Origin: Candidatus Nomurabacteria bacterium
Lineage (GTDB): Bacteria; Patescibacteriota; Minisyncoccia; Phycocordibacterales; UBA9973
Length of the DNA: 64,000 bases
Assembly: GCA_023898605.1 (NCBI GenBank)
Contig: CP060230.1
Location: 466,444-530,443, forward strand
Direction: 5' to 3'
Shown here: positions 2,982 to 47,742 of the stretch, piece after piece
Layout: each line of letters opens with the position of its first letter
How positions within the stretch are numbered: position 1 is the stretch's first letter
Translations under genes and position numbers: made by a program
The notes under the pieces: generated by a model
The model's input: only the letters and a program-made list of their open reading frames with translations
Told to the model about the DNA's origin: nothing
Databases searched by the model: none

Positions 2982-3101
2982 AATCGCTTTTATTTAAATA
3001 ATAATAGACACTTAATATTGCGAACCCTAGGATAATAACACAATTTTTAACTCTTGCAAGAAGAAGATAAAAGATTTTAGTTTGTGATAGAATTGACCTA
3101 T

Positions 3102-3668
3102 ATGATCGGAGTAATAAGAGGAGAAATTATAGAAAAAGACGGAAAAAGAATAATCGTAGATACAGGAGGTGTTGGATATAGTATCTACATGACAGAGACG
3201 GATATAATTAGCACCAAAATAGGAGAATCTGTTTTTTTGTATACCTACATGGCGGTCAAAGAAAACGCCATAGAGTTATATGGATTCTTTGAAGAGGGTG
3301 ACAAAGAAATATTTGAAAGACTCTTGAGTGTGTCAGGAATAGGGCCAAGGTCTGCTCTTTCTATATTGGGGATTGCACCCAGAGAAACACTCCTCCGTGC
3401 TATTTCTTCTGGAGACTCATCTTACCTGACACAAGTTTCAGGAATAGGTAAAAAAACAGCAGAAAAAATAGTTCTGGAACTAAGAGATCAGTTGAAAGAT
3501 ATACAAATAGACGAAGGATTGAGAGGAAAAACAGACGCACTAGAAGCACTGATTTCTCTTGGGTATAAAAAAGAAGAGGCTCGTGATGCAATAAAAAGTG
3601 TTTCAGAAGAAATAGAAGATCTGAACGAAATGATACGAGAAGCACTAAAAATAATAAGTAAGTCTTAA
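3102..3668 (+). CDS. ruvA: Holliday junction branch migration protein RuvA (ORF track starts 3084; MIGVIRG start at 3102 matches RuvA N-termini)
   Basis: Two helix-hairpin-helix motifs (VSGIGPRSALSILG, VSGIGKKTAEKIV) and a C-terminal RuvB-interaction domain. Confidence 0.85.
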   Translation: MIGVIRGEIIEKDGKRIIVDTGGVGYSIYMTETDIISTKIGESVFLYTYMAVKENAIELYGFFEEGDKEIFERLLSVSGIGPRSALSILGIAPRETLLRAISSGDSSYLTQVSGIGKKTAEKIVLELRDQLKDIQIDEGLRGKTDALEALISLGYKKEEARDAIKSVSEEIEDLNEMIREALKIISKS

Positions 3669-5406: not shown

Positions 5407-5480
5407 TGTCCCCTCGGCAGGATTCGAACCTGCGACCATCTCCTTAAAAGGGAGCTGCTCTACCAACTGAGCTACAAGGG
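5407..5480 (-). tRNA. tRNA-Lys (anticodon TTT)
   Basis: Manual fold: acceptor CCCCTTG/CGAGGGG, D arm GCTC-AGTTGGTA-GAGC, anticodon loop CTTTTAA, T arm GCAGG-TTCGAAT-CCTGC. Confidence 0.8.
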
Positions 5481-5547
5481 GATATTTCTATTTTTATCTT
5501 TTGTTTATTTCGAGATTAAAAATCTTTGAAGCGTCTATTTTACCAAA

Positions 5548-13731: not shown

Positions 13732-15627
13732 TCATCTTATTACCCGATTGCTTTGGTTCCTCGGCTGAGTTGCCCAAACCTGCTTTTGCTGGTTTTGGTT
13801 CCTCGGCTGAGTTGCCCAAACCTGCTTTTGCTGTTCCTGGTACCGAGCCGAAGGAAGAGAAGTGGAATAATTATTCCTTTCTCTTGTTTCCTTCATTGTG
13901 GGATCCGGATCGTATGCCTGTCTATCTCGAGTAGAATACTCGGTGTTTGGTACGTATTTAGGCACATAATTATCCCTTGTGGGATTTTCTGTGTTCTCCA
14001 AATTCATCGCCAAGCTTGGATCAACCGTGCGAACACCTGCATCCTGATAAGGAGTGCTGGTGCCCATGGAAGCCAAACCACTACCCAGATACTTTTCGGG
14101 AGAAACTATTGTCACTCCTGATACACCAACACTGGGATTCATTGATGCCATTCCAGACCGGTCAATAAATTGACTGGGTGGAACTACGGTCGGAACCGAT
14201 TCTGTAGAAACCTGATAGCTCGTCTGGTTTGTACCAGGACGACCACCTTGATCCCCTATTGGAATAACGGGGCTGACCGTTGCAACTTCACCACGAGGGG
14301 TAATATTGCCGAACTGAAGACCGGAACTGCTCTCAAACTGGTTTTTACCTGCCAGGTTGTCTTGCTCGACAATCTGTATAGGATGAGCCACAGACTCCTT
14401 ATTGGCTGATTCGTTACGAACCTTGCCAGAAAGATTGCCTGCAAACTGACCAAACCTTCCATTATCATCTGGTATGTTTCCGTCTCCAGTTGATCCAGAA
14501 TCTCCTCCGGATCCACCAGAAACATCTCCAGCATCACCAATATCGTCCGGGATATCAGGATTCCAAACAATAGGATCGTCAGGAACATCAACAACTGTGT
14601 CTCCACCACCGGAACCGCCACCATTGTTGTGCCAGTTCCAATTCCAGTTCCAATGATCACCACCGTTGTAGGTGTAATCATCATCACTGTAATTGTACGT
14701 GTAGTTGTAGGTGTAGTTACCTCCATAGTACGACGGCGTACTGTAGTAAGGACTGCAGTAGTTTCCGTAACCAGAAGGATAACAATTGTTCCACCCATAA
14801 CCCCACGAAGAACCGCATCCGTTCCACCCGTAGCCCCAGCCAAAACTGGAACCAAAGTAGGATGAACATCCGTAGTTCAAGCCGTAGCCTGCCTGGAAAT
14901 ATCCGTTACCGTAGGTAGTAGGATATCCATAACCGTCATAACCACCATAGTAGTTATTGGTTACCTGTTGAGGAAACCCGGTGACAGTTGCACTGGCTGT
15001 AGCGGTAGCTGTAGCCTTGGCATCCCCAGAGGTCGATGTTTTTTCAACTTCCCCGTCGCCAGAAGGCGGTGGGATTGTTGCGAGCTGTCGATCCTCTTTA
15101 AGGAAGGAGTAGTCAGTGTGGTTGGCACAAGATATCTTGTCCAACACCACTGTTACAATCTTACCCGTCTGATCTTTGATATCTACCACAGCAAACGCTG
15201 TAGTTTCATCAAAATCAGGTCTGTCAGAGTAATCAACCAGGCCATTTTTGTAACCGGCGATTTTTGGGTTGTCTGATGGGTCAAGGTAAGCCACGTAGGC
15301 ATTCCTGATCGCATCCAAGACGACGTCCTTTGTGATAACGCCAACACCTACAAGCTTGTGGGTGTTTACCGCCTTTTGGAGATTTTTTTGGATCTCTTCA
15401 AGGTACTTATCGCGAGGTTGACGAATCTTCCAGGTGGTTTTACCCAAAACCTGGTCCTGCCATGCATTAAAAGTAAGTGTCTCGGCAGAAAACGCATATT
15501 GCGAATTCTGCGCGTTGGTCAGCTCTGCCAATCCGAGGCAGAAAAAGACCATAAAGATGAGTTTTTTCATTGTGCAAGTTTTGTTTTTATTCGAGAGGAT
15601 ATTATCACATTTATAGCTTTGTGTCAA
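13732..15627 (-). CDS. secreted protein with N-terminal globular domain, central G/Y/N/W/S low-complexity region and C-terminal 14-aa tandem repeats
   Basis: Signal peptide MKKLIFMVFFCLGLAELTNA; segment GYGWNGCGSSWGYGWNNCY...NYTYNYTYNY...WNWNWNWH; C-terminal QQKQVWATQPRNQ(N/S) x2. Confidence 0.5.
   Translation of the reverse strand: MTQSYKCDNILSNKNKTCTMKKLIFMVFFCLGLAELTNAQNSQYAFSAETLTFNAWQDQVLGKTTWKIRQPRDKYLEEIQKNLQKAVNTHKLVGVGVITKDVVLDAIRNAYVAYLDPSDNPKIAGYKNGLVDYSDRPDFDETTAFAVVDIKDQTGKIVTVVLDKISCANHTDYSFLKEDRQLATIPPPSGDGEVEKTSTSGDAKATATATASATVTGFPQQVTNNYYGGYDGYGYPTTYGNGYFQAGYGLNYGCSSYFGSSFGWGYGWNGCGSSWGYGWNNCYPSGYGNYCSPYYSTPSYYGGNYTYNYTYNYSDDDYTYNGGDHWNWNWNWHNNGGGSGGGDTVVDVPDDPIVWNPDIPDDIGDAGDVSGGSGGDSGSTGDGNIPDDNGRFGQFAGNLSGKVRNESANKESVAHPIQIVEQDNLAGKNQFESSSGLQFGNITPRGEVATVSPVIPIGDQGGRPGTNQTSYQVSTESVPTVVPPSQFIDRSGMASMNPSVGVSGVTIVSPEKYLGSGLASMGTSTPYQDAGVRTVDPSLAMNLENTENPTRDNYVPKYVPNTEYSTRDRQAYDPDPTMKETRERNNYSTSLPSARYQEQQKQVWATQPRNQNQQKQVWATQPRNQSNRVIR
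13754..13837. repeat. perfect 42-bp direct tandem repeat (2 copies) inside the 3' end of CDS 13732-15627 (encodes QQKQVWATQPRNQ x2)
   Basis: tggttcctcggctgagttgcccaaacctgcttttgc occurs at 13754 and again at 13796. Confidence 0.8.
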
Positions 15628-15698: not shown

Positions 15699-17399
15699 AT
15701 GCCACTTGGTGATAGTGATATACAACTCAAAAAACTAAATGACTTAAAAAAAGAAGAAGAAGAGGATCTTGTGAAGGTCTTGGCCGAGGCCAAGTACAAT
15801 CTTCCCTATATGAATTTGAGAGAAGTTGTTGTAGACAACGCAGCACTTCGTTTTGTTGATGAAAAAGAAGCAAAAGAGTCTGGCGTTGCTCCTTTTAAAC
15901 TAATAGGAAAAAATATTTATCTAGGTGTTCTGTCTCCAAACAATGAAAACATCTCAAAAATAGTTGAATCAATCGAAAGAAAAAACTACACAGTTTATCT
16001 ATACATGATTAGTCACGCCTCTGCAGAAAAAGTTTGGGAAAGATACAAAGAACTTTCTATTTCCAAAGAAACTCGAGGTGGAAGTTTAGACATATCTGGA
16101 GAAACCCTACTCTCATACAGAGAAAGAATTTCTTCTGTTTCAGATATACCAAAAATCCTAGAGGAAGCATCCAAAGACAAGCTTCACAAGGTTTCTCTTA
16201 TTTTGGAAATAATTCTTGGTGGAGCAATCGCGACAAATGCTTCTGACATACACATAGAACCAGAAGAAGAAATGGTAAAGATAAGATACAGACTAGACGG
16301 TGCACTAAACGATATACACTACATAAGCCATGATATATACAAGCTTCTAAACTCTAGAATCAAACTTCTTTCTGGAGTAAAGCTAACACTCAAATCAATC
16401 GCCCAAGACGGAAGATTTAGTATAAACATCGAAGAGAAAGAAATAAATATAAGAACCTCTATAATCCCCGGAGCATATGGAGAATCTATTGTTATGAGAC
16501 TTCTTGACCCAGACACAATCAAAACAAAACTAGAGGACCTCGGAATAGACAAAAGATTGTTCACTATAATCGAGAAAGAAATCGCAAAACCAAACGGACT
16601 AATACTCTTAACTGGTCCAACTGGTTCTGGTAAAACAACAACACTATACGCGTTCTTGCAGAGAATATACTCTCCTGAGAAAAAAATAATAACAATAGAA
16701 GACCCTATCGAGTATCACTTGCGTGGAATAACACAAACACAAGTAGACAATAAAAAAGGTTATACGTTTCTAGAGGGACTTCGAAGTTCGCTTAGACAAG
16801 ACCCAGACATAATCATGGTTGGTGAGATAAGAGATGCCGAGACTGCAAAAATAGCAGTAGAGTCTTCTCTTACTGGGCACCTTGTTTTCTCAACACTACA
16901 CACAAACAACGCTGCTGGTGTTGTACCTAGACTTATTGATCTTGAGGTAAACCCAAAAACAATCCCGTCTTCTCTAAACCTATCTATCGCCCAAAGACTT
17001 GTAAGAAAGCTTTGTGAAAACTGCAAGAAAGAAGTTTCTCTAGACGAAGAAAAAGAAAACCTGGTTAGAGGAATAATAAAAGACGGTATATCAGAAGGAA
17101 AAAACTTTTCTGACTATGGAATAAATGAAAATATGGAAATAAAGGTTTACCAACCTGTTGGTTGTGATAAATGCAGTGGCATAGGCTACAAAGGTAGAAT
17201 TGGTATTTTTGAAGCCATGTATATGGGAGACCCTGAACTAGAAAAAATAATCCCAAACAACCCAAGCGAGAGAGAAATAAAAGAAATATCTGATAAACAA
17301 GGCTTATTGGACATGAAAGAAGACGGGATAATAAAGGTTCTTCTTGGGGTAACTAGTTTTGAAGAGGTGGCAGAAACAGTTGATTTGTATAAGGATTAA
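15699..17399 (+). CDS. pilB: type IV pilus assembly / type II secretion ATPase (PilB/GspE family)
   Basis: Walker A GPTGSGKTTT, Asp box, Walker B and His box (GEIRD...STLHTNNAAG), tetracysteine motif CENC...CDKC, 566 aa. Confidence 0.85.
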   Translation: MPLGDSDIQLKKLNDLKKEEEEDLVKVLAEAKYNLPYMNLREVVVDNAALRFVDEKEAKESGVAPFKLIGKNIYLGVLSPNNENISKIVESIERKNYTVYLYMISHASAEKVWERYKELSISKETRGGSLDISGETLLSYRERISSVSDIPKILEEASKDKLHKVSLILEIILGGAIATNASDIHIEPEEEMVKIRYRLDGALNDIHYISHDIYKLLNSRIKLLSGVKLTLKSIAQDGRFSINIEEKEINIRTSIIPGAYGESIVMRLLDPDTIKTKLEDLGIDKRLFTIIEKEIAKPNGLILLTGPTGSGKTTTLYAFLQRIYSPEKKIITIEDPIEYHLRGITQTQVDNKKGYTFLEGLRSSLRQDPDIIMVGEIRDAETAKIAVESSLTGHLVFSTLHTNNAAGVVPRLIDLEVNPKTIPSSLNLSIAQRLVRKLCENCKKEVSLDEEKENLVRGIIKDGISEGKNFSDYGINENMEIKVYQPVGCDKCSGIGYKGRIGIFEAMYMGDPELEKIIPNNPSEREIKEISDKQGLLDMKEDGIIKVLLGVTSFEEVAETVDLYKD

Positions 17400-17401
17400 G
17401 A

Positions 17402-17436
17402 CTTGACAAGAATCATTCTATTTGCTATACTGTGTA
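17402..17436 (+). promoter_or_regulatory. sigma-70-like promoter TTGACA-17 nt-TATACT
   Basis: Consensus -35 TTGACA at 17402-17407, 17-nt spacer, -10 TATACT; just downstream of the pilB stop. Confidence 0.4.
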
Positions 17437-17518
17437 AGTAAATAAATATTTTGTTGTTTTCCACAAGAATATTGGTTTCTCCACAGAGATTCCACAAACA
17501 TATAAACTTTTAGATTTT

Positions 17519-17548
17519 GTCAATTATTTGACAAGATTTTATACTTAT
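17519..17548 (+). promoter_or_regulatory. second sigma-70-like promoter TTGTCA-17 nt-TATACT
   Basis: Read directly; would initiate near 17556, at the 5' arm of the long inverted repeat. Confidence 0.35.
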
Positions 17549-17555
17549 ATGGCTT

Positions 17556-17727
17556 TTATTTTTTGAAGAGATCGTAAATCTCTAAGCAATCAGGCCTTGC
17601 CTCTACAGTTTCAAGGAGGACGTCTTGGTGAGAATTAATTTTCTTTCCTGGGACTATCCTTTGAGACACTGTTACTTAGTTTCGCAGAAGCAGATTAAGG
17701 ATTGTTTAGAGATTTACGGTTTTTTCT
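17556..17727 (+). ncRNA. candidate structured small RNA (about 170 nt) whose 5' and 3' ends form a roughly 22-bp closing stem followed by a U-run; 6S-RNA-like architecture, identity unconfirmed
   Basis: gatcgtaaatctctaagcaatc (17571-17594) pairs with gattgtttagagatttacgg (17697-17720) followed by ttttttcttttt; preceded by two consensus promoters; no ORF. Confidence 0.3.
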
Positions 17728-17769
17728 TTTTGGGTGAAAGGTTATTTTTTCGTGATACAATTTACCCAT

Positions 17770-18735
17770 ATGAAAGAAAACGATCATCTAGACACAGTAC
17801 TTCGGCCATCAAATTGGGAAGAATATATAGGCCAAGAATCTATAAAACAAAACCTGAAAATACTACTCAAAGCAGCAGAAGAGCGCGGTCACACAGCTGA
17901 ACATATTTTGTTTTATGGTGCACCGGGTTTGGGTAAAACAACCCTCGCACACCTTATCGCAAAAGAAACTGGAAGAAATCTCAAAATAACTTCTGGTCCT
18001 GCAATAGAAAAAGTTGGAGACTTGGCTTCACTTCTTACAAACCTTGCTGAGGGAGATATTTTGTTTATAGACGAGATACACAGACTAAACAAAATGATAG
18101 AAGAGGTTCTATACCCCGCTATGGAGTCTGGTGTTTTAGATATAATAATCGGCAAAGGTCCGTCTGCAAGAAGTATTCAGCTTGACCTGCCACCCTTTAC
18201 TCTTGTTGCAGCAACCACAAGAGTTGCATTACTTTCTGCCCCACTTAGATCTAGGTTTGGCGGAGGATCTTTTAGATTGGATTTTTACAAAACAGAAGAA
18301 ATAGCAGAAATCATAAAAAGGTCTGCAAAAATACTTGGTATAGAAATAGAAGAAGAAGCTTTGTTGGAAATCGCCAAAAGATCTCGTTTTACACCGAGAA
18401 CAGCAAACTACTTTTTAAAAAGGTGTCGTGATTACGCCCAGGTTCACAAAAAATCACTCGACAAAAAAACTGTTTTTCTAGCGCTATCACTTCTAGGGAT
18501 AGACGAGTATGGACTTTCTGAACTCGACAGAAAAGTTCTAGAAATAATAATCGACAAGTTTTCTGGTGGACCAGTAGGACTAACAACAATCGCAACTGCT
18601 CTGTCGGAAGATGAAGCCACAATAGAAGATGTTGTTGAGCCATATCTAATACAAGAAGGTTTTATAGAAAAAACTCCAAGAGGTCGTGTCGCGACAAAGA
18701 AAGCTTTTCAGCACTTGGGTTTTGAAAAAAAATAA
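17770..18735 (+). CDS. ruvB: Holliday junction DNA helicase RuvB (ORF track start 17734; ATG 17770 follows an extended -10 TGATACAAT, possibly leaderless)
   Basis: AAA+ Walker [12 protein letters not shown], Walker [11 protein letters not shown], sensor and winged-helix C-terminal domains. Confidence 0.9.
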
Positions 18736-23685: not shown

Positions 23686-24783
23686 TTATCTATTGAGTGG
23701 CATTACTAGATAAAGAAAACTTTTATCAGAATTTCCTTTTATAACCATTGGTTTATTTTCATCCATAAAAGAGATAATAATAGAGTCATCTTCTATAAAA
23801 GATAGTGAATCTAATATGTATTTATAATTATAACTAGCTTCTAATTTGTCTCCTTTTATAACAGCGTCTATTTCTATAACACTATCTCCAACGTCTGGGT
23901 TTTTTGTTTCTACTACAAATTTTTTATCTGTTGGAAGAATTTTAATATTTATATTATTGAATTTATCTGTAAAATAAGTCGATGTTTTTAATGCATCTAT
24001 AAAATCTTTTTTCAAAATAGTTGCACTTGTTTTAGAGTCTTTTGGAATTATTTGTCTATAATCAGGAAATACTCCGTCTATAATCCTGGTTGTAAAATAT
24101 ATTTTTTCAGATTTTATAGATATTTGATTTTTAGAAATAATAAGTTCAACATCACTATTTATTTCTTCTAAAATTCTAAGTAATTCTCCACAGTTTTTTA
24201 TAGGAATAATTATCCCTTCTATGTCATCTGTTTTTTTAAGTAGTGTTTTTTTCTCAGCTAATCTAAAAGAATCTGTAGCGGTGGATATAAGATGTCCATT
24301 TTCTATATAAATATAAACACTGGCTATTTCTGGTTTTATATCACTAAGTGATGCACTAAAAGATACTGATTTTATAACTTCATAAAGTTTTTTACTAGAA
24401 ATAATTATATTTTGACCCTCTACTTTTGGAAGTATTGGAAACTCATCATCCTCAAGTACTTTTATATTTGAATTTTGAGCTTTTGTAGATATTTTAAGAA
24501 TTGAATCTTTTTTCTCTAATGTTATATTTTCTTTTGCTTTTAAATTTGATATAGCTCCGCTCAAAGTGACGCCATGAACAACTGTTTCTCCTTCTTTTTC
24601 TATTTGACCGTCTATTTCATATTCAACACCAATATTTAAATTTGTTGCTTTAAGTATTATTTTATTTTTCTTTACTTCTATTTTAATACCAGAAAGTATT
24701 GGTAATGTAAGATTTTTACCTGTAACTCTTTCTACCATCGATACTGCTTTTTGGATATCTTCACTTTTAACAATACATTTCAT
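23686..24783 (-). CDS. dnaN: DNA polymerase III beta subunit (sliding clamp)
   Basis: Three-domain clamp length (365 aa), N-terminal MKCIVKSEDIQKAVSMVERVTGKN...LPILSGIKIEV typical of DnaN; position downstream of dnaA. Confidence 0.85.
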   Translation of the reverse strand: MKCIVKSEDIQKAVSMVERVTGKNLTLPILSGIKIEVKKNKIILKATNLNIGVEYEIDGQIEKEGETVVHGVTLSGAISNLKAKENITLEKKDSILKISTKAQNSNIKVLEDDEFPILPKVEGQNIIISSKKLYEVIKSVSFSASLSDIKPEIASVYIYIENGHLISTATDSFRLAEKKTLLKKTDDIEGIIIPIKNCGELLRILEEINSDVELIISKNQISIKSEKIYFTTRIIDGVFPDYRQIIPKDSKTSATILKKDFIDALKTSTYFTDKFNNINIKILPTDKKFVVETKNPDVGDSVIEIDAVIKGDKLEASYNYKYILDSLSFIEDDSIIISFMDENKPMVIKGNSDKSFLYLVMPLNR

Positions 24784-24979
24784 AATTCTTTATATATAAA
24801 TTTATTATTACTATTAAGGGTGTTTATATGTGTATATCTTTTTTAATTCTTATAATTCAACACTTTTTTTAAAATCTATATGTTAATTCTTTTATAAAAA
24901 TTTTTTAACAAACACTGACTTATATTTTTTTATTTTTTTTATTAACATTTATAAAAAATTTTTAACATAATTATTAACA
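24784..24979. promoter_or_regulatory. candidate oriC / DNA unwinding element: 196-bp extremely AT-rich dnaA-dnaN spacer with two TTATTAACA (degenerate DnaA-box-like) copies
   Basis: Very AT-rich spacer; TTATTAACA at 24939 and 24971; classic dnaA-dnaN location of bacterial origins. Confidence 0.35.
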
Positions 24980-26329
24980 CTATTTAAACAATAAACGCAG
25001 TCTTTCTACTTCATCAACTAATTCTGGATCTTTACTTAAATCGTTTTTTATCTTTGTACACGAGTGAATTACTGTTGTATGGTCTTTTCCACCAAGTTTT
25101 TGTCCTATATGAGGGAATGAAATATTGAAATCTTCTCTCAATATATACATAATCACCTGCCTCGCTTTAACAATCTCTTTTCTTCTAGTTCTATCATAAA
25201 TAGAACTAGTTTCTATATTATAAAAATCAGAAACAATAAAAACTATATCATCTATAGATATATTCTTTTTTGGCTTTATATTGTTTTTTAAGAGGTTTTT
25301 TATCTCTTTTTGAGACAAAGGCTTATTTTTGATTTTTTGACTACAAAGAATCGAATTAAAACACCCTTCCAACTCTCTTATGTTTCCAGAAATACTTTGA
25401 GCAATAACATCTATTATTTCATCTTCTATCAACTCCTCTTGCTCTTCTGCTTTTTTTCTAAGTATTGCCACTCTAGATTCATACTCAGGTTCATTTATAT
25501 TTACAGTCATTCCTTGAGAAAACCTTGATTTTAAACGATCTTCTAATCCTGTTATAAAATGAGGGTGTTTATCTGAAGAAAATATAATTTGCTTATTGTT
25601 TTCATAAAGTTCATTGAATAAATGAAACAACTCTTCTTGAGTTTTATCTTTTCCAGAGATAAATTGAATATCATCCATTATTAAAACATCATATTTTCTA
25701 TATTTTTCTTTAAAAAGATTTGCTTTATTGTTTTGTACTGAGTTTATATAGTCTACAGAAAATCTCTCAAGTGTTGTATAAAAAACTCTTTTTTCTGCAA
25801 AATTTGTTTTTATAGTATTCCCTACTGCTTGTATAAGGTGTGTTTTTCCTAAACCAGTATCTCCATAGATGAAAAACGGATTATATATTTGTCCCGGTTG
25901 TTTAACTATAGCTTGAGAAGCCGCGTGTGCTAATTCATTGAAACCACCAACAATAAAAGAATCAAAAGTATATCTAGGATTCAAATTATCTTCCTTGTTT
26001 ATATAAAGATCTTTTAGAGGAAGTTCTTTTTTTACAATCTCATCCAAGGTTTCTTTTTTTATTTCTTTCTTAGGAGATTGACCAGCTTTTACTATTTGGA
26101 ATTCAATAGATCTTATTCCAGCATCGACATTATCTATCATACTCTTCAAAATCAGAGATTGATATTTATTTGAAAGCCACTCTTTTACAAATTCATTTGG
26201 AACACCAACATAAACAGTTCCCCCATCTTGTTTAACAATTGAGGTGTGTTTGAACCAAGTACTAAAATTAGCGCGAGATACGCTAGTTTCTATTTGCTTT
26301 AAGCATTGGTTCCAAATAGTGTTATCCAT
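24980..26329 (-). CDS. dnaA: chromosomal replication initiator protein DnaA
   Basis: AAA+ Walker A GDTGLGKTHL, Walker B VLIMDDIQF, C-terminal DNA-binding domain; 449 aa. Confidence 0.9.
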   Translation of the reverse strand: MDNTIWNQCLKQIETSVSRANFSTWFKHTSIVKQDGGTVYVGVPNEFVKEWLSNKYQSLILKSMIDNVDAGIRSIEFQIVKAGQSPKKEIKKETLDEIVKKELPLKDLYINKEDNLNPRYTFDSFIVGGFNELAHAASQAIVKQPGQIYNPFFIYGDTGLGKTHLIQAVGNTIKTNFAEKRVFYTTLERFSVDYINSVQNNKANLFKEKYRKYDVLIMDDIQFISGKDKTQEELFHLFNELYENNKQIIFSSDKHPHFITGLEDRLKSRFSQGMTVNINEPEYESRVAILRKKAEEQEELIEDEIIDVIAQSISGNIRELEGCFNSILCSQKIKNKPLSQKEIKNLLKNNIKPKKNISIDDIVFIVSDFYNIETSSIYDRTRRKEIVKARQVIMYILREDFNISFPHIGQKLGGKDHTTVIHSCTKIKNDLSKDPELVDEVERLRLLFK

Positions 26330-26493
26330 AAAAATATATTTGTAATTATAATCGTTAATTTAAAAACTAAGTAATTTGTCTAAAATGTTAAAAACATGTT
26401 TATAACTGTGGAAAACTTTTATAACAAAGAATATCTTAAAAAAAGACTTCTGTATATAGACATTTCTAAAAAACCAGTGTATACTTCGCCCAT

Positions 26494-26628
26494 ATGTCAG
26501 TAACATATCAACCAAAAAAGAGAAAAAGAGCAAAAACTCACGGATTTCTAACTAGAACTAAGACCTCTACTGGGAAAAAAGTACTACAAGCTAGAAGAAG
26601 AAAAGGTAGAGCAAAACTTGCTGTTTAG
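26494..26628 (+). CDS. rpmH: 50S ribosomal protein L34 (below the 60-aa ORF-track cutoff)
   Basis: Translates to [44 protein letters not shown], a near-canonical L34; immediately upstream of rnpA. Confidence 0.8.
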
Positions 26629-26630
26629 GC

Positions 26631-26963
26631 ATGTTAAATAAGATTTTTAGACTAAAAAGTGTAGATTTTGATCAAAAATTCGTATTTTTTTACGAAAATG
26701 ACGTTTTTTCTCTAAAAAAGACCAGGGAACCCAAGGAATTGGGTTTTTCTGTTGTAATACCTAAAAAAATCATAAAAAGCGCGGTAAAAAGACACAGAAT
26801 AAAGAGAATTGTTTTGGCTGAAGTTTCAAAAAACCTATATAAAATAAGGCTAAAAAACAAAATACTTATTTTTATAAAGAAAGAAATAAACAATAAGACA
26901 GAAAATGAAACAAAAACAGAAATAGAGAAAATGGTTCATTTTTTAATAAACCAAAATGTCTAA
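26631..26963 (+). CDS. rnpA: ribonuclease P protein component
   Basis: 110 aa basic protein with KKIIKSAVKRHRIKRIV (RNR-like motif); rpmH-rnpA-yidD-yidC synteny. Confidence 0.8.
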   Translation: MLNKIFRLKSVDFDQKFVFFYENDVFSLKKTREPKELGFSVVIPKKIIKSAVKRHRIKRIVLAEVSKNLYKIRLKNKILIFIKKEINNKTENETKTEIEKMVHFLINQNV

Positions 26964-27183
26964 AATAGCTATTATTTTTATAGATTTTTACCAAAAAATC
27001 AAAAAAACCCTTATAAAACAAGGCATTTTGAGTGGTAATAGAGTTTGCAGGTTTTACCCAACTTGTTCACAGTATACAAAAGAGGCCCTTCAAAAACATG
27101 GTTTTTTCAAAGGGCTTTTTCTTGGTGTTAGAAGGGTTTTGAAATGCCACCCTTTCTCAGAACACAAAATAGATAAAATATAA
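26956..27183 (+). CDS. yidD: membrane protein insertion efficiency factor YidD
   Basis: CRFYPTCSQY conserved YidD motif; 75 aa. Confidence 0.8.
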   Translation: MSKIAIIFIDFYQKIKKTLIKQGILSGNRVCRFYPTCSQYTKEALQKHGFFKGLFLGVRRVLKCHPFSEHKIDKI

Positions 27184-27221
27184 GTTTGATATATATAGAT
27201 ATTTTAATATAATATATCCCT

Positions 27222-27926
27222 ATGGGGATATGGAATAATTTGTTTTTTGAGCCGCTTTACAACGCTCTTATTTTTTTAATAAATATTTTACCAGATGCTG
27301 GTTTGGCGATAGTTTCTTTGACGATAGTTGTAAAACTAATACTCTTCCCCATTCAAACCAAATCTATAAAAAGCCAGATTGAGCTCAAAAAAATAGAGCC
27401 AGAAGTTCAAAAAATAAAAGAAGAATATAAAGACAAAGAAGAGCAAGCCAAAAAAACATTTGAACTATATAAAAATAAAAAAATAAACCCATTTTCAGGT
27501 TGTTTACTGCTTCTTATACAACTTCCTATAATTATCGCTCTTTACCAAGTATTTTTACAAGATTTCTCCGCCGACCACAGCTATCTATATAACTTTTTAT
27601 CCTTTCCAGAAAATATAAACTATACATTTTTAGGTTTTCTTGATATAAGAGAAAAGAGTATAGTTTTGGCGGTTCTTACCGGACTCAGCCAATTCTTCCA
27701 AACAAGGCTAATGATGGGAAGGACAGCATCTAGTTCTCCTTCTGGATCAGGTTTTGGGCAAGATCTTGCAAAGACAATGAATATGCAGATGAAATACTTC
27801 CTACCTGTTTTTATTGCATTTGTAGCAAGCAGATTACCTAGTGCGGTTGCGCTGTATTGGACAACAAGTAACCTTTTTGGAGTTCTTCACGAGTGGTATT
27901 TGAAGAAAAAAAGCGAAAAAGAATAA
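27222..27926 (+). CDS. yidC: membrane protein insertase YidC (short Oxa1-like form)
   Basis: 5-TM core, conserved PILFPL/LYW regions of YidC/Oxa1; 234 aa. Confidence 0.8.
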   Translation: MGIWNNLFFEPLYNALIFLINILPDAGLAIVSLTIVVKLILFPIQTKSIKSQIELKKIEPEVQKIKEEYKDKEEQAKKTFELYKNKKINPFSGCLLLLIQLPIIIALYQVFLQDFSADHSYLYNFLSFPENINYTFLGFLDIREKSIVLAVLTGLSQFFQTRLMMGRTASSSPSGSGFGQDLAKTMNMQMKYFLPVFIAFVASRLPSAVALYWTTSNLFGVLHEWYLKKKSEKE

Positions 27927-27927
27927 T

Positions 27928-28407
27928 ATGGAAAAAATTATAGAACAAACAGCAAAAGAAATAGTAGAAAAAAGTGGACTAAAGCCAGTATCTGAGCAGT
28001 TTATTTATGATGAAGAAAGTAATACATATTGGTATTCTATCGAGGGATCTCTTGGTAATCAAAAGATAAAAGATCAAGAAATATTGAGCTCCCTGAACCA
28101 TCTTCTCAGAAGAATAATAGAAACAAAAATAACAAAAGAAAATACTAGTGGGCAGGAAATAAAAGTTCCTATGGCACTTTTTGACATAAACGGTGCCCAA
28201 AGAAAAAAGATAGAAAATCTAAAAACAATAGCTCATATGATGGCAGAAAGAGCGAGATATTTCAAAAGTAAAATAGCAGTTGATCCTATGTCGCCGTATG
28301 ACAGAAGGATAATACACGAATTTCTTTCTACTAAACCAGACATAAAAACAGAGTCTGACGGCGAGGGTAGATCAAGACATGTTGTAATTTACTACACAGG
28401 AAAGTAG
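27928..28407 (+). CDS. Jag/KhpB-like RNA-binding protein (KH + R3H domains)
   Basis: C-terminal R3H motif (YDRRIIHEFL...GEGRSRHVVIY); located after yidC as in spoIIIJ-jag operons. Confidence 0.7.
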   Translation: MEKIIEQTAKEIVEKSGLKPVSEQFIYDEESNTYWYSIEGSLGNQKIKDQEILSSLNHLLRRIIETKITKENTSGQEIKVPMALFDINGAQRKKIENLKTIAHMMAERARYFKSKIAVDPMSPYDRRIIHEFLSTKPDIKTESDGEGRSRHVVIYYTGK

Positions 28408-31729: not shown

Positions 31730-33568
31730 TTAAGCCTTTATTCCAGAGTTTTCCTCGAATTCTTGTTTTGATCTTTTTATTGCTAGAACTTGTGCTGGGT
31801 CAGATGTGATTATTTGTTCTTCTGTATATGAAGCTATGATTTTTATCGCTACGTGTTTTAGTCCGGCAAAGAATATTCCCTCTCCCACTCCAGACTCTAG
31901 TAGTAGATATTTTTCTTCATCTGTAAGATTAAATGTCTTCTGGAGTGATTCTATGGTTGACGGAGACTGTTTCAAAAGTAGTTGTATAGAGGAGTTGGTT
32001 ATTATTGGAACTCCATATGGGGACCGCATAAAGTCGTCCACGTCTTGGGTTATAGTTGCAAGACCAAGCCAGTATTTTCTACATCTTTTTGCAATTCCAT
32101 AAAGGAAAGAAGCTGTATCTTCCGATTTCATCATCCACCACGCCTCGTCGACAACAAGAATTCTTTTTCTCTTCTCTCTTCTTATTGCGTTCCATATAAA
32201 GTGAGTAACTATATACATTGCGACCGGCTTAAGCTCGTCTTCCATGTCTCGAACAGAGAAAACAATAAACTTTTTGTTTATATCTATGTTGGTTGGTTGG
32301 TTTATAAAAGTTGACCAACTACCACGTGTGAATTTCTGAAGCTTCTGGAGTATAGAGTCTGTGTTTTCCATACCAGAAAGAACCATTTCAAAATCTGACA
32401 AAAGAGGTGCCTCAATTTTAGAAAAATCAGAATCTCCGTTTATATCTTTTATGGCGTATGTTTCTGTTATTGCCTTGTCTACAATCGCGTCTTCTTCTGG
32501 AGTTAGACCACCAAGCATGATTCTAAAAAGCCCAACAAGGTTTATAACGTTTGATCTCAGCACATCTGCGCCAGACTCATCTTCTGTCGGAAGTGGCAAA
32601 TCAAACGGGTTTATATGGTGATCTGAAGAAAGTGATATGTTGAAATATCTTCCACCAACAGCCTCTGCAAGATACTCATACTCTTTTTCTGGGTCTAGAA
32701 CCATAACTTCTATATCAAACATAAGAGAACGTAGTATTTCTAGTTTTGTCGCAAAGCTTTTTCCTGCACCGGCCTTTGCAAAAATAACAGAGTTATAGTT
32801 TTCCATAGAGAATCTATCGAACACCACCATGCTGGCATTGTGCCTATTGATTCCGAAAAGTATTCCTTTGTCAGAAGTTAGATCAAAAGAAACAAAAGGA
32901 AAAAGAGAAGAAAGCGGCGCAGAGTTTAGTTTCTGATGAACAGAAAGTAGGTCGTCCCCTATTGGAATAGTGCTTTTGAAGCCTTCTGATTGTTGGAAAA
33001 GAGCAGGTTTTAGATAAACAAGCTTTGCGTCTAGTATAGACTTGATTTCATTCTCTGTTTTGTATAGTTCTGACTCATTTTCTGCGTATATTGTTATATA
33101 AAGACCTACATCAAAAAGCTTTTCTTGTGCTTGTTGCAAATTGTCACGAAGCTCTTCTAGATCTCTGTACGCAGTGTCTAGCACAGGGTCTCTCACAAGC
33201 CCCTTCTGCTCTCTTATAGATATCTGGCTTGCAACTTCGGCAACTTTTTTCTGGAAGTGCTTTAGAACAGAAGATGTGTCTACGGGGTGTATAAAAATAG
33301 ATACATCAAATATCTTGTCGAGGTTTATTATGGGCGTGAACCAGTTGTCAGAAAGATATCTCGGATAAGAAATAACAAAAAATGTCTTTGCTATCTTGTC
33401 TCCCAAGTTCAAACTCTTTGAAGAAATTTCTAGTGCAGAAGGTGCTATATAGTCTTGCAATTCCAAAGTTGCAGCTTCGTAGATTTCTTTTGGCAAAATA
33501 GGAGAAAGAGAAACATCTGGCTCTTGTTTCGCGCTTTTTTTATTCAAGATAGAGTCTAGTAATCCCAT
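31730..33568 (-). CDS. VirB4/TrbE/CagE-family type IV secretion ATPase (Gram-positive ConE/PrgJ/TcpF-like)
   Basis: N-terminal ...FFVISYPRYLSDNWF...DVSIFIHPVD domain, Walker A AKAGAGKS, Walker B RILVVDEAWWMM, C-terminal GLATITQ motif; 612 aa. Confidence 0.8.
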   Translation of the reverse strand: MGLLDSILNKKSAKQEPDVSLSPILPKEIYEAATLELQDYIAPSALEISSKSLNLGDKIAKTFFVISYPRYLSDNWFTPIINLDKIFDVSIFIHPVDTSSVLKHFQKKVAEVASQISIREQKGLVRDPVLDTAYRDLEELRDNLQQAQEKLFDVGLYITIYAENESELYKTENEIKSILDAKLVYLKPALFQQSEGFKSTIPIGDDLLSVHQKLNSAPLSSLFPFVSFDLTSDKGILFGINRHNASMVVFDRFSMENYNSVIFAKAGAGKSFATKLEILRSLMFDIEVMVLDPEKEYEYLAEAVGGRYFNISLSSDHHINPFDLPLPTEDESGADVLRSNVINLVGLFRIMLGGLTPEEDAIVDKAITETYAIKDINGDSDFSKIEAPLLSDFEMVLSGMENTDSILQKLQKFTRGSWSTFINQPTNIDINKKFIVFSVRDMEDELKPVAMYIVTHFIWNAIRREKRKRILVVDEAWWMMKSEDTASFLYGIAKRCRKYWLGLATITQDVDDFMRSPYGVPIITNSSIQLLLKQSPSTIESLQKTFNLTDEEKYLLLESGVGEGIFFAGLKHVAIKIIASYTEEQIITSDPAQVLAIKRSKQEFEENSGIKA

Positions 33569-33641
33569 AATTTTTTTATCTTCATATATTATAACCCATT
33601 TTTATTTTAATATAATTAAAATAGGTTATAATTATCTACAT

Positions 33642-34298
33642 ATGGCACAAATCGGGGCACCAACACAACAATTTGTCCCAATAAAAGAAATACGAGACGG
33701 TGTGGTTGTTTTGAAAGACGGCTCTCTTAGGGCGGTTCTTCTTGCTTCTTCTGTAAACCTTTCTTTGAAGTCTTATGATGAAGAGCAGGCTATAATAGGG
33801 CAATTTCAAGCTTTTTTGAACTCGCTAGACTTTTCTCTTCAGATAATAGTGCAATCTAGAAGATATGACGTAAGACCATATCTTTTATCTCTAGAAGAAA
33901 GGATGAGAGAACAGACAGAACCTCTACTCAAGGTTCAAACCAAAGAGTATATAGAATTTATACGTTCTTTTACAGAGCAAAATGCGATAATGAAGAAATA
34001 TTTCTACCTAGTTGTCCCTTATAACTCTGTTGTTTTAAATACAAAAGGTGCCGCCGGAAAACTAGAACAGTTTCTACCTTCTAGTCTCAAGGGCTCTGCT
34101 CCCAAAAAAGAAGGCGCTACTGAGTTTGAAGAAATGAAGTCTCAACTTGAACAAAGACTCACCGTTGTAGAAGAAGGAATGGCAAGAGTTGGTATAAGAT
34201 CTGCTAGGCTTGGAACAGAAGAGTTGATAGAAGTTTTCTACAAATGGTTCAATCCAGGAGATTCTGCACAAAGTGGTGTGGCAGATAATTTGGCATAA
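33642..34298 (+). CDS. hypothetical soluble protein divergent from the VirB4 gene; weak resemblance to VirB4 N-terminal-domain-like sequences
   Basis: 218 aa, no TM; DGSLRAVLL...FLNSLDFSLQIIVQS pattern; 2-bp gap to the following small membrane protein. Confidence 0.3.
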   Translation: MAQIGAPTQQFVPIKEIRDGVVVLKDGSLRAVLLASSVNLSLKSYDEEQAIIGQFQAFLNSLDFSLQIIVQSRRYDVRPYLLSLEERMREQTEPLLKVQTKEYIEFIRSFTEQNAIMKKYFYLVVPYNSVVLNTKGAAGKLEQFLPSSLKGSAPKKEGATEFEEMKSQLEQRLTVVEEGMARVGIRSARLGTEELIEVFYKWFNPGDSAQSGVADNLA

Positions 34299-34300
34299 TT

Positions 34301-34723
34301 ATGAATTTCAAAGTTCCACAATTTATAGAAGTTGAAGATAAGGTTTTTGGACCACTTACATTCAAGCAGTTTATATATCTTGCGGGTGGTGCAGGTCTCT
34401 GCTTTATATTGTGGAGACTCCTACCCCACTTTCTAGCTATTATATTTATAGCACCTGTTGCTGGTTTTGCTGCGGCGTTAACTTTCCTCAAAATAAATCA
34501 AAAGCCTTTTATCCAAATAGTTGAAGCGTTTTTGAATTATCAAATCGCATCTAAATTATATGTCTGGAAAAAAGAACCTAAAAAGATAAAGCCTAAAAAA
34601 GAAGAAGACATAATACCAAACACAGGATACCTCCCAAAAATGTCCGAGAGTAAGCTCAAAGACCTTGCTTGGAGCTTGGATGTTCTCGATTCCTCTACAC
34701 AAAACAAAGAATTAAAACAATAA
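34301..34723 (+). CDS. small 2-TM membrane protein, VirB3/PrgI-like candidate
   Basis: 140 aa, hairpin of two TM helices (FIYLAGGAGLCFILWRLL / LAIIFIAPVAGFAAALTFL) with a charged C-tail; location within the T4SS-like module. Confidence 0.35.
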   Translation: MNFKVPQFIEVEDKVFGPLTFKQFIYLAGGAGLCFILWRLLPHFLAIIFIAPVAGFAAALTFLKINQKPFIQIVEAFLNYQIASKLYVWKKEPKKIKPKKEEDIIPNTGYLPKMSESKLKDLAWSLDVLDSSTQNKELKQ

Positions 34724-34747
34724 AAATCCCGCTGAGTGCGGGATTTT

Positions 34748-35437
34748 TTATACTTCTTCTCTGTATGGATCCAAACCATGATATGAGCCGGTTTTTGGAG
34801 GCTTGATCTCTTTTCCGATACTTGGTAGAGATCTGTCGCTAACTTCTGTTCTCATGGTTGTCGGTGCAGAAAGTTTTTCTTTCAAAAAGCTTGGTTTTTC
34901 TTGTCCTCTGTCTGGTTCACCAGTAGGAAGTTTTATTTTAAGGTCGTCCTCTATCGATACTTCGTTTGGCTTCTCGTCTTCTGTTTTTTTAGTTTCTACT
35001 ACAGGACTACTTACTATCTCTGGTTCTTTTTTCTCGTATATCTCAACCCCTGATTTTTCTAAAACATTTTTTTCTTCTGGAGATATTTCTTCTTTGTCTT
35101 CTACCTCGTTCATGATTTCTGTTAGTTCTATCTCTCGCTCTCTTATAGGGTTAAATATGTTTGAGTTTAGGTTTTCTATGACAGACAAAACTTTGTCTTT
35201 TGGGATACCGTTTATGGCGTTTATTTCTACACGAAGTTCATCTGTTGATAGTAGTCCTACTGTTGCAAGATCCACCACGTCGAAAAGATCTTTTCCGGTA
35301 TCTAAGTGTAGCCCCTCTTTTTCTACAAGATCTTTTATTCTTTCTGGAACGTTTACATCCAAAACAGCCTCTTTTGTTGTAACGGGCAAGTTTTCAAATG
35401 CTTCTATTATTTGGTCTGGAGTGAATTTTTTGATCAT
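34748..35437 (-). CDS. hypothetical acidic soluble protein (last gene of the VirB6 operon)
   Basis: 229 aa, E/D/K-rich, no TM; 17-bp gap after the VirB6-like gene. Confidence 0.35.
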   Translation of the reverse strand: MIKKFTPDQIIEAFENLPVTTKEAVLDVNVPERIKDLVEKEGLHLDTGKDLFDVVDLATVGLLSTDELRVEINAINGIPKDKVLSVIENLNSNIFNPIREREIELTEIMNEVEDKEEISPEEKNVLEKSGVEIYEKKEPEIVSSPVVETKKTEDEKPNEVSIEDDLKIKLPTGEPDRGQEKPSFLKEKLSAPTTMRTEVSDRSLPSIGKEIKPPKTGSYHGLDPYREEV

Positions 35438-35454
35438 ATATTATAAATTATACA

Positions 35455-38937: not shown

Positions 38938-39007
38938 AATATATAGATAAATTATACCTCATTTATATGAAATTACTCTATTTTTTTCCTAAATATCAAC
39001 AGAGTTT

Positions 39008-42019: not shown

Positions 42020-42028
42020 TTTTTATCA

Positions 42029-47654: not shown

Positions 47655-47679
47655 CATTGCCTAAAAAATTAACAAACAA

Positions 47680-47718: not shown

Positions 47719-47742
47719 TTGTTTGTTTATTTGAAGGCTTGT

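Follow-up and report, generated by a model that had tools for sequence, protein, structure and literature searches.

A probable structured RNA gene of a previously undescribed family adjoining ruvB in Paceibacteria-type bacteria

Results

The pilB-ruvB intergenic region

The window analyzed here is a stretch of 64,000 nucleotides from Candidatus Nomurabacteria bacterium (assembly GCA_023898605.1, contig CP060230.1, positions 466,444 to 530,443). Within it, pilB (T2SSE; 15699-17399) and ruvB (ATG at 17770, extending to 18735) flank an RNA element, and ruvC is also a neighbor. The conserved core of the element, a four-way junction composed of helices P1 to P4, occupies 17565..17726 on the + strand and is defined by its fold, by a covariance model (CM) score of 134 bits and by covariation. 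The segment had been described as free of open reading frames, which is roughly correct: the frames that overlap it are short, comprising frames of 37 aa and 30 aa on the - strand and a 91-aa frame with a TTG start (17625-17900) that enters ruvB out of frame, and are taken to be spurious.

The original prediction placed two near-consensus promoters at 17402 and 17519. Both are present, at the corrected positions 17403-17431 and 17517-17545, respectively. The distal promoter, TTGACA-17-(TGC)TATACT (17403..17431, + strand), scores 11/12, carries a TG extension and has a predicted start near 17438. The proximal promoter-like site, TTGTCA-17-TATACT (17517..17545, + strand), scores 10/12 with a predicted start near 17552, which is 13 nt before P1. 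It is a putative, species-specific promoter without support from conservation; four relatives (L014, L086, L108, L136) also possess a second promoter-like site, but at differing positions. Promoter-like sites in the 1.4-kb region are not more numerous than expected by chance (4 observed vs 3.2±1.5 expected). Support for the distal promoter instead derives from its conservation among relatives, as a strong sigma-70-type promoter, TTGACA-16/17-TGnTAnnnT, in the RNA sense is kept upstream of P1 in 83/98 copies. The distance from this promoter to P1, and hence the leader length, ranges from 7 to 216 nt across the family. The leader in the window (17438..17564, + strand) is non-conserved, and includes three TTCCACA-type repeats (17457-17500) and a TTGTCAA/TTGACAA palindrome; homology of the leader and trailer to those of relatives was sought and none was found. 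The repeats suggested a replication origin or DnaA-box cluster, which was discarded when 16 DnaA-box-like sites were counted in the window compared to 17.6 expected; dnaA, dnaN and the likely origin are 9 kb away at about 24-27 kb.

A further candidate promoter, GTGAAA-16-(TGa)TACAAT (17734..17761, + strand; 9/12 with TG), lies between the RNA element and ruvB. As this site is only 8 nt from the ATG at 17770, the spacing suggests that the ruvB mRNA may be leaderless or near-leaderless, and independent of the RNA gene. The RNA element is single-copy in the window and at each locus sampled: a 19-nt core of the inverted repeat occurs at just two sites in the 64 kb, its own arms, compared to 0.03 expected. 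A weak CM match at 47666-47737 was rejected as a second copy since it corresponds to an unrelated 20-bp terminator hairpin.

Fold of the RNA element

The + strand of 17565-17726 folds with a minimum free energy of -72.4 kcal/mol (z -8.35), a value matched by 0/200 shuffled sequences, whereas the fold of the - strand is weaker (-47.3 kcal/mol, z -5.2). The same core also forms within a 298-nt long transcript. The overall fold is a 27-bp closing helix, P1, that encloses three hairpins. An inverted repeat of ~22 bp had been claimed for the ends of the segment; the repeat is genuine and longer, with 27-nt arms at 17565-17591 and 17700-17726 that surround ~108 bp and are 85% Watson-Crick complementary, the remainder being G-U pairs. 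The inner half of the P1 5′ arm (17565..17591, + strand), AAAUCUCUAAGCAAUC, is sequence-conserved in the main family, and the 3′ arm (17700..17726, + strand) covaries with its partner.

On the 5′ side of the junction, the P2 hairpin AGGC-CUU-GCCU (17592..17602, + strand) directly follows P1. The long P3 hairpin (17605..17672, + strand; 68 nt) has internal loops and a variable apex, and is distinguished by a nearly invariant AGGA/UCCU helix in which 17617-17620 pair with 17657-17660 (alignment pairs 73-76/120-123), by a C / UA internal loop (C17621; U17655, A17656) and by tandem U-G/G-U pairs. The P4 hairpin (17675..17699, + strand) forms the 3′ side of the junction. Across the family P1 comprises 27-30 bp, P3 about 25 bp and P4 9-11 bp, with P2 short, and the modeled element, consisting of the core with short flanks, has a median length of 171 nt. 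The helices of the consensus meet in a near-perfect four-way junction whose unpaired bases number 0/3/3/0. The large central bubble for which folding was suggested as a check is absent: the 5′ side of the junction has a median of 16 nt and, in place of a single-stranded bulge, is occupied by P2, flanked by unpaired bases that number 0 and 3 in the median. All three hairpins (P2, P3 and P4) have variable loops, which disfavors a function mediated by loop base pairing.

Conservation and covariation

Searches with nhmmer and the CM detected the RNA upstream of ruvB in each of the 23 closest species-level genomes (L001-L023; 60-143 bits), and a pattern scan located at least 120 metagenome loci. 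A CM search of 74 metagenome loci and the genome loci yielded 98 matches. Overall, the RNA adjoins ruvB in >140 genomes of ultra-small bacteria of the CPR/Paceibacteria type. The sampling of relatives is biased in that L001-L080 were obtained via ruvB and L081-L200 via a pattern that only sequences with the conserved P1 and P3 core can match. Five distant variants (L026, L035, L057, L061, L073) display the same architecture in the same position and on the same strand relative to ruvB. The inverted repeat whose conservation was to be checked is thus kept in relatives, with covariation.

In an alignment made with MAFFT only, compensatory changes were evident in 31/45 pairs predicted by RNAalifold. 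In the 98-sequence alignment 47/56 modeled pairs had compensatory changes, a count that leans to the model structure because this alignment was fitted to it; the bias is mitigated by the MAFFT-only alignment and by slid and chimera controls. Paired cells in the 98 sequences amounted to 87.8% compared to 38-52% when the partners were slid, and 0/500 shuffles reached any of the measures. Within P1 (helix 1), compensatory changes are found in 23 of the 27 pairs and 94% of cells are paired, P4 (helix 5) shows such changes at 8/8 pairs, and helices 2-4, within P3, also covary. As the MAFFT and CM alignments do not register the variable P2 hairpin, P2 was assessed by folding of each sequence with shuffle and chimera controls: a hairpin of at least 3 bp forms in 96% of the 98 RNAs, as 74 distinct sequences. 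Chimeric hairpins were less stable than the real ones for P2 (-1.4 vs -3.2 kcal/mol), the P3 apex (-0.7 vs -3.1 kcal/mol) and P4 (-1.75 vs -5.7 kcal/mol), which indicates that these hairpins are maintained through sequence-specific complementarity. Moreover, 13.1% of cells are G-U pairs as against 3.2% A-C pairs, and this ratio of 4:1 fixes the strand of the RNA. This conservation and covariation lend strong support to the proposal that the element is a discrete, structured small RNA equipped with a promoter and terminator of its own.

The 3′ end

The U run described after the closing stem is present at 17721-17732 on the + strand (TTTTTTCTTTTT, UUUUUUCUUUUU). Its first six U residues and C17726 pair with GAAGAGA (17565-17571) inside the P1 helix, and the run together with P1 resembles the 3′ end of an intrinsic terminator. 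P1 probably terminates transcription, because the combination of hairpin and U run is seen both in the window and in 51/98 relatives, in which the run comes straight after P1. P1 is without a U run in the other 47/98, many of which have a separate terminator hairpin further downstream. The RNA is predicted to be ~165 nt, or ~182 nt if counted from the proximal start through the U run; the transcript with its ends and its abundance are predictions from sequence signals.

These features could denote nothing more than an elaborate intrinsic terminator, or an insulator, that separates pilB from ruvB, acts bidirectionally in relatives and has no function as a free RNA. The terminator-like pairing of P1 with a U run accords with this explanation, as does the A-rich 5′ flank in those relatives that were read, which specifies a U-rich tail on the other strand. 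However, the explanation is very unlikely. It is at odds with the 47 relatives in which the U run is missing at P1 and with the separate downstream terminators, and it renders superfluous the three internal covarying hairpins, the near-invariant AGGA/UCCU helix and junction bases, and the dedicated promoter. The conserved covarying interior and the promoter exceed what a terminator comprises.

Orientation of the RNA gene relative to ruvB and pilB

The RNA gene is opposite in strand to ruvB, in a head-to-head arrangement, in 139/140 loci in which ruvB is on the contig. Co-directionality with ruvB is confined to the species represented by the window, in which the whole intergenic module is inverted and the RNA runs toward ruvB. 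This inverted arrangement recurs in eight independent assemblies, with the 370-bp intergenic region identical in seven and bearing one mismatch in the eighth, which rules out misassembly as the source of the unusual orientation. Viewed in the window, the element could pass for a 5′ leader, attenuator or riboswitch of ruvB, as it shares the strand of the gene, lies directly upstream of it and has a terminator-like hairpin at its end. The proposal that it is a cis-acting leader or attenuator is contradicted by the relatives: a leader would share the strand of ruvB throughout, whereas in 139/140 loci the 5′ end of the RNA faces ruvB and transcription proceeds away from the gene. Even in the window the separate candidate ruvB promoter stands between the U run and the ATG, and the leader explanation is effectively refuted. 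Nor is the RNA a leader of pilB in those genomes, because pilB is convergent on the opposite strand and the RNA runs toward it.

The inversion in the species of the window, along with the 27-bp terminal inverted repeats around about 108 bp, also evokes an element that operates at the DNA level, such as a miniature inverted-repeat transposable element (MITE), a promoter that switches by inversion or an inverted repeat that binds a protein. This proposition is hardly credible. The window and each locus contain a single copy, which invariably occupies the same syntenic site, and the collections of viral contigs, phages and plasmids contained no matches to it; it is chromosomal rather than mobile. 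The asymmetry of G-U pairing between the strands and the stronger fold of the + strand also oppose a DNA-level role. Furthermore, the inversion is not a flip between the arms because it includes the promoter and leader outside the repeats, and the locus is not a switch of mixed orientation because the arrangement is fixed and essentially identical in the eight assemblies.

The spacing between the RNA gene and ruvB is compact. The -35 hexamer of the RNA promoter is a median of 33 nt from the ruvB start, and <40 nt away in 64% of loci. In L004, L006 and L008 the ruvB ATG overlaps the -35 hexamer, with a ruvB-sense -10 motif, TGCTATACT or TGCTATAAT, placed inside the RNA leader. On the other side, pilB is convergent and ≤600 nt away in 106/122 loci with pilB on the contig piece; in about 12% of loci adjacency to pilB has been lost and the RNA persists. 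In roughly two thirds of loci ruvC comes after ruvB, at a distance of up to about 3 kb. Divergent promoters that interlock and overlap offer the simplest account of why the RNA gene stays so tightly linked to ruvB, although near-absolute linkage could also reflect a function related to ruvB.

The same layout is the principal attraction of a model in which the RNA gene regulates ruvB and/or pilB in cis. Here, the very strong RNA promoter overlaps or faces that of ruvB and would act by exclusion or collision, transcripts of the long-leader variants would be antisense at their 5′ ends, and read-through would be antisense to the pilB 3′ UTR. The divergent orientation in 139/140 loci, distant variants included, the short spacing to ruvB with the three overlapping cases, and the convergence with pilB are all as this model anticipates. 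Nevertheless, it is considered quite unlikely. A promoter alone suffices for interference, which leaves a covarying four-way junction of 165 nt unexplained, and the conserved core lacks complementarity to ruvB. The transcripts do not overlap in the short-leader variants, the RNA is intact (134 bits) in the species of the window despite inversion of the module, and it is retained where adjacency to pilB is lost.

Searches for known RNA families

None of the 4227 Rfam families matched the RNA in the window or in 13 close and eight divergent relatives, either at gathering thresholds or at permissive cut-offs (E<=10 in 17350-17800; E<=5 in the 21 relatives). Chance matches only were returned (PyrG leader, snoRNAs, miRNAs), none of which was at the RNA in relatives. 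The search proposed for 6S RNA, with RF00013, 6S-Flavo and the other models of the clan, was negative in the same way: no match reached the gathering score in the window, and the permissive cut-offs (E<=10 for 17350-17800, E<=5 for the 21 relatives) yielded none. ARAGORN identified 0 tRNA or tmRNA genes in 17000-18200, and the Rfam tRNA model matched the window at 1741-1812 and 5409-5481 only; a tRNA or tmRNA was ruled out on the basis of ARAGORN and the Rfam models. The hallmark of SRP RNA (4.5S / ffs) is a conserved helix-8 motif with a GNAR apical tetraloop. This candidate was dismissed since there was no Rfam SRP match and the apical loops are not conserved. A Y RNA (YrlA) was likewise rejected in view of the lack of an Rfam match, the variable P2, P3 and P4 loops and the neighboring genes pilB, ruvB and ruvC; no TROVE domain (Ro60) was found among the 37 window ORFs scanned, which extend up to 46.5 kb. 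A literature search on 6S RNA or structured RNAs in CPR/Patescibacteria found nothing relevant.

Discussion

The sequence data argue that the pilB-ruvB intergenic region very probably harbors an independent gene for a structured RNA of a new family. The family is previously undescribed and is found in CPR bacteria of the Paceibacteria/Parcubacteria type; no new mechanism is demonstrated. In the proposed scheme, the variable leader and trailer would be trimmed back to P1, which would shield both ends of the RNA, and in about half of the family P1 with the U run would double as a terminator. A purine-rich (A-rich) flank 5′ of P1, noted in the handful of relatives' sequences that were read, may make P1 a bidirectional terminator that serves the convergent pilB in relatives. 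The mature RNA would then bind a protein in trans through its sequence-conserved faces, which are the inner half of P1, the junction and, within P3, the AGGA/UCCU helix along with the C/UA loop. An even chance is assigned to a trans-acting, protein-binding role.

One bold version of this role is that the RNA mimics a Holliday junction and binds or titrates RuvA, RuvB or RuvC, in the manner that 6S RNA mimics an open promoter. Points noted in this connection are the 0/3/3/0 four-way junction, the disposition of two long (P1, P3) and two short (P2, P4) arms with the members of each pair opposite, and the head-to-head association with ruvB in 139/140 loci across two divergent subfamilies. The idea is extremely doubtful. 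In a less radical version, the molecule could be the RNA of an abundant, CPR-specific ribonucleoprotein whose new partner might be RNA polymerase, the ribosome or RNase III, among others.

CPR bacteria, or Patescibacteria, account for a large share of bacterial diversity and have genomes of about 1 Mb or less with very little dispensable DNA. To our knowledge, almost nothing is known of their non-coding RNAs beyond rRNA, tRNA, tmRNA, RNase P RNA and SRP RNA. The RNA is likely to do something important because it is universal in the sampled members of a large Paceibacteria clade and has been kept beside ruvB across deep divergence. If it is a functional analog of 6S RNA, the regulation of RNA polymerase by RNA extends to the CPR with a new architecture, and if another partner is bound, a new ribonucleoprotein is defined. 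With the alignment, model and loci from the analysis, both possibilities become directly testable.

Comparison with known RNAs

The assignment to 6S RNA in the original prediction invites the closest comparison. In this reading, the RNA would either serve these bacteria as their 6S RNA or be a functional analog; it would bind the housekeeping RNA polymerase holoenzyme by mimicry of promoter DNA, with P1 and P3 as the two duplex arms and P2 and P4 as folded versions of the bubble strands. As in 6S RNA (ssrS; RF00013), a small RNA of ~150-200 nt is preceded by a strong promoter of the housekeeping type, a long closing stem is formed by the two ends, internal loops interrupt a long apical stem (here P3), and conserved sequence is located around the center and not in the loops; at ~165 nt, with a family median of 171 nt, the RNA has the size of a 6S RNA. 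Firmicutes 6S RNAs, e.g., those of Bacillus and Lactobacillales, normally carry a hairpin across from the 5′ bulge, and P4 sits in this place on the 3′ side of the center (PMC8414754). The occurrence of a single copy at every locus sampled, presence in all 23 closest species-level genomes, and the lack of an Rfam 6S match in any sequence searched (the window and the loci of relatives) are also compatible with the RNA filling the 6S role. However, canonical 6S RNA requires a large single-stranded 5′ central bulge that holds the start site of the product RNA (PMC8414754), whereas the 5′ side here is a covarying hairpin with about three unpaired bases and no large bulge able to template product RNA. 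At the center the helices meet in a tight four-way junction, the closing stem is nearly free of imperfections where that of 6S is typically bulged, and no 6S covariance model matches. With neither a model match nor a 5′ bulge, and with P2 in place of the latter, the 6S assignment is unsupported and the broader 6S reading is judged unlikely.

The tRNA cloverleaf is similarly a four-way junction with few unpaired junction bases (0/3/3/0 here), but the equivalent of the acceptor helix in the RNA described here is 27-30 bp, and conserved D-, T- or anticodon-loop sequences are absent. Bacterial Y RNAs (YrlA / Yrn1) are stable, protein-binding RNAs that are partners of Ro60/Rsr and whose genes adjoin rsr. 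They resemble the RNA in having a multi-branched, tRNA-like (four-way) domain that is closed by a long stem of the two RNA ends. Unlike Y RNAs, the RNA has no Rfam match, is bordered by pilB and ruvB rather than rsr, and is without a conserved T-loop-like hairpin loop because all of its loops vary. The raiA motif RNA is an orphan structured bacterial RNA known from comparative genomics alone. Like such orphan RNAs, the RNA beside ruvB has a covarying, multi-helix fold, is restricted to a clade, has no obvious downstream target gene and has a function that is not deducible from sequence. It shares no sequence or structure homology with the raiA motif, from which it is further set apart by its CPR clade, its different architecture and its near-absolute synteny with ruvB.

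A predicted RNA gene between pilB and ruvB

The 370-bp gap between pilB (T2SSE ATPase; 15699-17399, + strand) and ruvB (ATG 17770-18735, + strand, followed by ruvC) contains an inverted repeat with 27-nt arms at 17565-17591 and 17700-17726, and the run TTTTTTCTTTTT at 17721-17732. A near-consensus distal promoter, TTGACA-17-TGC-TATACT, is located at 17403-17431 and a second promoter-like site, TTGTCA-17-TATACT, at 17517-17545. The promoters and inverted repeat of the original prediction were confirmed, with slightly shifted promoter coordinates and a closing helix longer than had been stated. The + strand of 17560-17735 folds with -72.4 kcal/mol (z -8.35), which was equaled by none of 200 shuffles, whereas the - strand reaches only -47.3 kcal/mol; G-U pairs account for the difference. 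The closing helix (P1) encloses three hairpins on the + strand, P2 (17592-17602), P3 (17605-17672), and P4 (17675-17699), instead of forming a rod with a bubble, and the identical core fold forms within a 298-nt transcript predicted to start at the distal promoter.

No further copy of the arm sequence was found elsewhere in the 64 kb. Searches of the whole window with Rfam 15 (4227 families) at gathering score returned two tRNAs and nothing else, there was no plausible match at E<=10 in 17350-17800, and ARAGORN detected neither tRNA nor tmRNA in the pilB-ruvB region. The RNA model also matched weakly at 47666-47737 (20.6 bits, E 0.064), a site that was rejected as a second copy: it is a perfect ~20 bp hairpin unrelated to the RNA family that lies between convergent genes (46544-47614, +; 47743-49284, -) and looks like a bidirectional terminator.

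Distribution and covariation

With RuvB as anchor, 80 species-representative genome loci (L001-L080) were recovered, the best RuvB matches being in Paceibacteria/Parcubacteria-type CPR genomes at 66-80% identity. Every locus from L001 to L023 proved to have the element immediately upstream of ruvB in searches with nhmmer and then with a covariance model from 15 sequences (60-143 bits). At least 120 additional loci were retrieved from metagenome contigs, but none from viral contigs, with a degenerate pattern for the conserved P1 and P3 core, and BLAST of phage and plasmid collections produced no match to the element. The relatives considered here are loci reached either through ruvB or through the conserved core. 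Distant versions, in genomes whose RuvB is only ~58-62% identical, have a related P1 (CUGUAGACAAUUGG) and agree with the main family in their four-helix layout and in where and on which strand they lie relative to ruvB. This divergent second subfamily is on the strand opposite ruvB in L026 (1-156), L035 (2514-2657), L057 (about 2700-2960), L061 (2674-2828), and L073 (2318-2473). The P2 loop UUCUAUCUUUU is conserved in three of these five loci and could pair alternatively with the AAGAUA that begins P3, as a pseudoknot or alternative fold. The Uhr-, Buchanan-, Doudna-, Falkow-, and Saccharibacteria-type loci that were inspected showed no equivalent upstream of ruvB.

Compensatory changes were evident in 31 of 45 RNAalifold pairs in an alignment made with MAFFT only, and both sides changed in 47 of 56 pairs in the 98-sequence alignment A3, which is model-based and biased toward the modeled structure. 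Standard pairs occupied 87.8% of A3 cells compared to 38-52% when the 3′ partners were slid by 1-3 columns, and none of 500 shuffles attained any of five measures. Covariation extends to 23 of the 27 pairs of P1. Nearly invariant features are the inner helix AGGA/UCCU of P3 with an unpaired C opposite U-A, a tandem U-G/G-U, and one G-C pair. As P2, the P3 apex, and P4 are too variable in length to be registered by alignments, they were examined sequence by sequence. P2 forms a hairpin with 3 bp or more in 96% of the RNAs and occurs as 74 distinct sequences. Most of the stability was lost in chimeras whose 5′ and 3′ halves came from different RNAs (real versus chimeric: P2, -3.2 and -1.4; P3 apex, -3.1 and -0.7; P4, -5.7 and -1.75 kcal/mol). 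The four strands of the junction had medians of 0, 3, 3, and 0 unpaired bases, which describes a near-perfect four-way junction. Paired cells included 13.1% G-U but only 3.2% A-C, which marks the + strand of the window as the functional strand.

Promoter, terminator, and flanking sequences

In 83 of the 98 copies, TTGACA in RNA sense is separated by 16-17 bp from an extended -10 (TGnTAnnnT), at 7 to 216 nt upstream of P1. A U run directly follows P1 in 51 of 98, and many copies that lack it have a separate terminator hairpin slightly downstream; in roughly half of the family, P1 would thus also act as the terminator hairpin. No sequence conservation was found in the leader and trailer outside P1. 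The conserved unit thus is P1-P4, with variable flanks that presumably are trimmed off. In several relatives P1 is preceded on its 5′ side by purine-rich (A-rich) sequence, and there it would accordingly terminate the convergent pilB too.

The sequence CAATTGACA, a -35-like TTGACA with an A-rich stretch upstream, follows an A-tract on the RNA-sense strand 30-70 nt beyond the 3′ end of the RNA at nine loci (L009, L010, L011, L021, L089, L112, L135, L140, and L148), and suggests another conserved promoter for the gene after the RNA in those genomes. The non-conserved leader in the window includes three TTCCACA-type direct repeats at 17457-17503 (TTTTCCACA, TTCTCCACA, and GATTCCACA) that resemble DnaA boxes. 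A perfect DnaA-type box, TGTGGATAA, is present near the RNA 3′ end in L002 and L117, with a one-mismatch version, AGTGGATAA, in L135. DnaA-box-like sites are not enriched across the window (16 observed, 17.6 expected).

Association with ruvB

In 139 of the 140 loci whose contig piece includes ruvB, the RNA is encoded on the strand opposite ruvB, with its 5′ end toward the ruvB start and nearly always within 600 nt. This orientation refutes the proposal that the element is a ruvB leader or attenuator. Adjacency in the metagenome loci (at least 120) is no selection artifact as these were chosen by RNA pattern alone. The convergent pilB is close in most loci but displaced in about 12%, and the link to ruvB therefore is the stronger.

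The median distance between the -35 of the RNA promoter and the start of the ruvB coding sequence is 33 nt. In L004, L006, and L008 the hexamer is overlapped by the ruvB ATG: ATGTCAAGC, the reverse complement of GCTTGACAT, encodes the RuvB N-terminus Met-Ser-Ser (about 2955-2975), and a ruvB-sense -10 element, TGCTATACT or TGCTATAAT, is situated within the RNA leader. The predicted promoter regions of the RNA and ruvB are thus interlocked. A candidate ruvB promoter in the window, TGaTACAAT (17753-17761), ends 8 nt before the ATG, and TATACT in L001 (about 2960-2990) ends 6 nt before it; this proximity suggests that ruvB mRNA may be entirely or nearly leaderless. In the window, ruvA (3084-3668) adjoins fpg/mutM 14 kb from ruvB-ruvC, and the usual ruvAB operon is absent.

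The window itself is the exception: the promoter borders the stop codon of pilB, and the RNA is directed toward ruvB. The intergenic module (17400-17769), comprising RNA promoter, leader, and RNA, is inverted compared to the 139 other loci, with the orientations of pilB and ruvB unchanged. Misassembly was ruled out by eight independent assemblies with identical RuvB (ENA, NCBI GCA_020428735.1, Logan). As the 370-bp region is identical in seven and has a single mismatch in the eighth, the inversion is real. The inverted RNA is intact (134 bits with the covariance model). No convincing inverted repeats flank the module; TTGTATAAGGA (17385-17395) and TCGTGATACAA (17750-17760) are complementary over 82% only. 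Interference with ruvB transcription is plausible as a side effect of interlocked promoters, but it leaves the conserved fold unexplained and has been dispensed with in the species of the window.

Other features of the window

The region 23686-28407 includes dnaN (23686-24783, -), dnaA (24980-26329, -), a gap of ~890 bp (26330-27221) in a low-GC stretch (0.26-0.30 in 2-kb windows, 24-28 kb), and then yidC and a jag/R3H gene. It probably represents the origin region of the chromosome, could accommodate rpmH and rnpA, and is separated by ~9 kb from the RNA gene. A TTG-initiated 631-aa ORF (13732-15627, -; 620 aa in public assemblies) is divergent from pilB, has no Pfam match, and is located in a stretch with a GC content of 0.45 compared to about 0.36 around it. 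A type IV secretion-like cluster (31730-42976) encodes a TraG/VirB4-type P-loop ATPase, a PrgI-family protein, and two giant ORFs (1160 and 1003 aa) without Pfam match, and resembles the Patescibacteria T4SS of bioRxiv 10.1101/2025.01.22.634366.

Identity of the RNA and comparison with 6S RNA

On the best-supported reading of the sequence data, the element is a gene whose product is a stable structured RNA from a family not described before. The RNA may act in trans by binding protein, a role to which the sequence-conserved helical faces and the housekeeping-type promoter point; the variable loops argue against loop-mediated base pairing and further support this role. A MITE, inverton, Y RNA, SRP RNA, and tRNA-like element were each rejected on their defining tests, and a pure terminator is very unlikely. 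The retention of a four-way-junction RNA beside Holliday-junction motor genes raises the idea that it mimics a Holliday junction, which we regard as highly improbable.

Full-text searches of the literature brought up no account of a 6S RNA or similar structured RNA in CPR/Patescibacteria. The canonical 6S architecture comprises an outer closing stem, an apical stem, and a large single-stranded 5′ central bulge that is the template for product RNA, often with a hairpin opposite the bulge (PMC8414754). The assignment as 6S RNA in the original prediction was not borne out, as 6S models matched none of 22 sequences and the 5′ side departs from the canonical form. A 6S-like function in a new architecture is unlikely. 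The RNA and 6S have in common the closing stem, apical stem, and 3′-side hairpin but, unlike in 6S, the 5′ side of the RNA is a covarying hairpin with ~3 free bases in place of the bulge.
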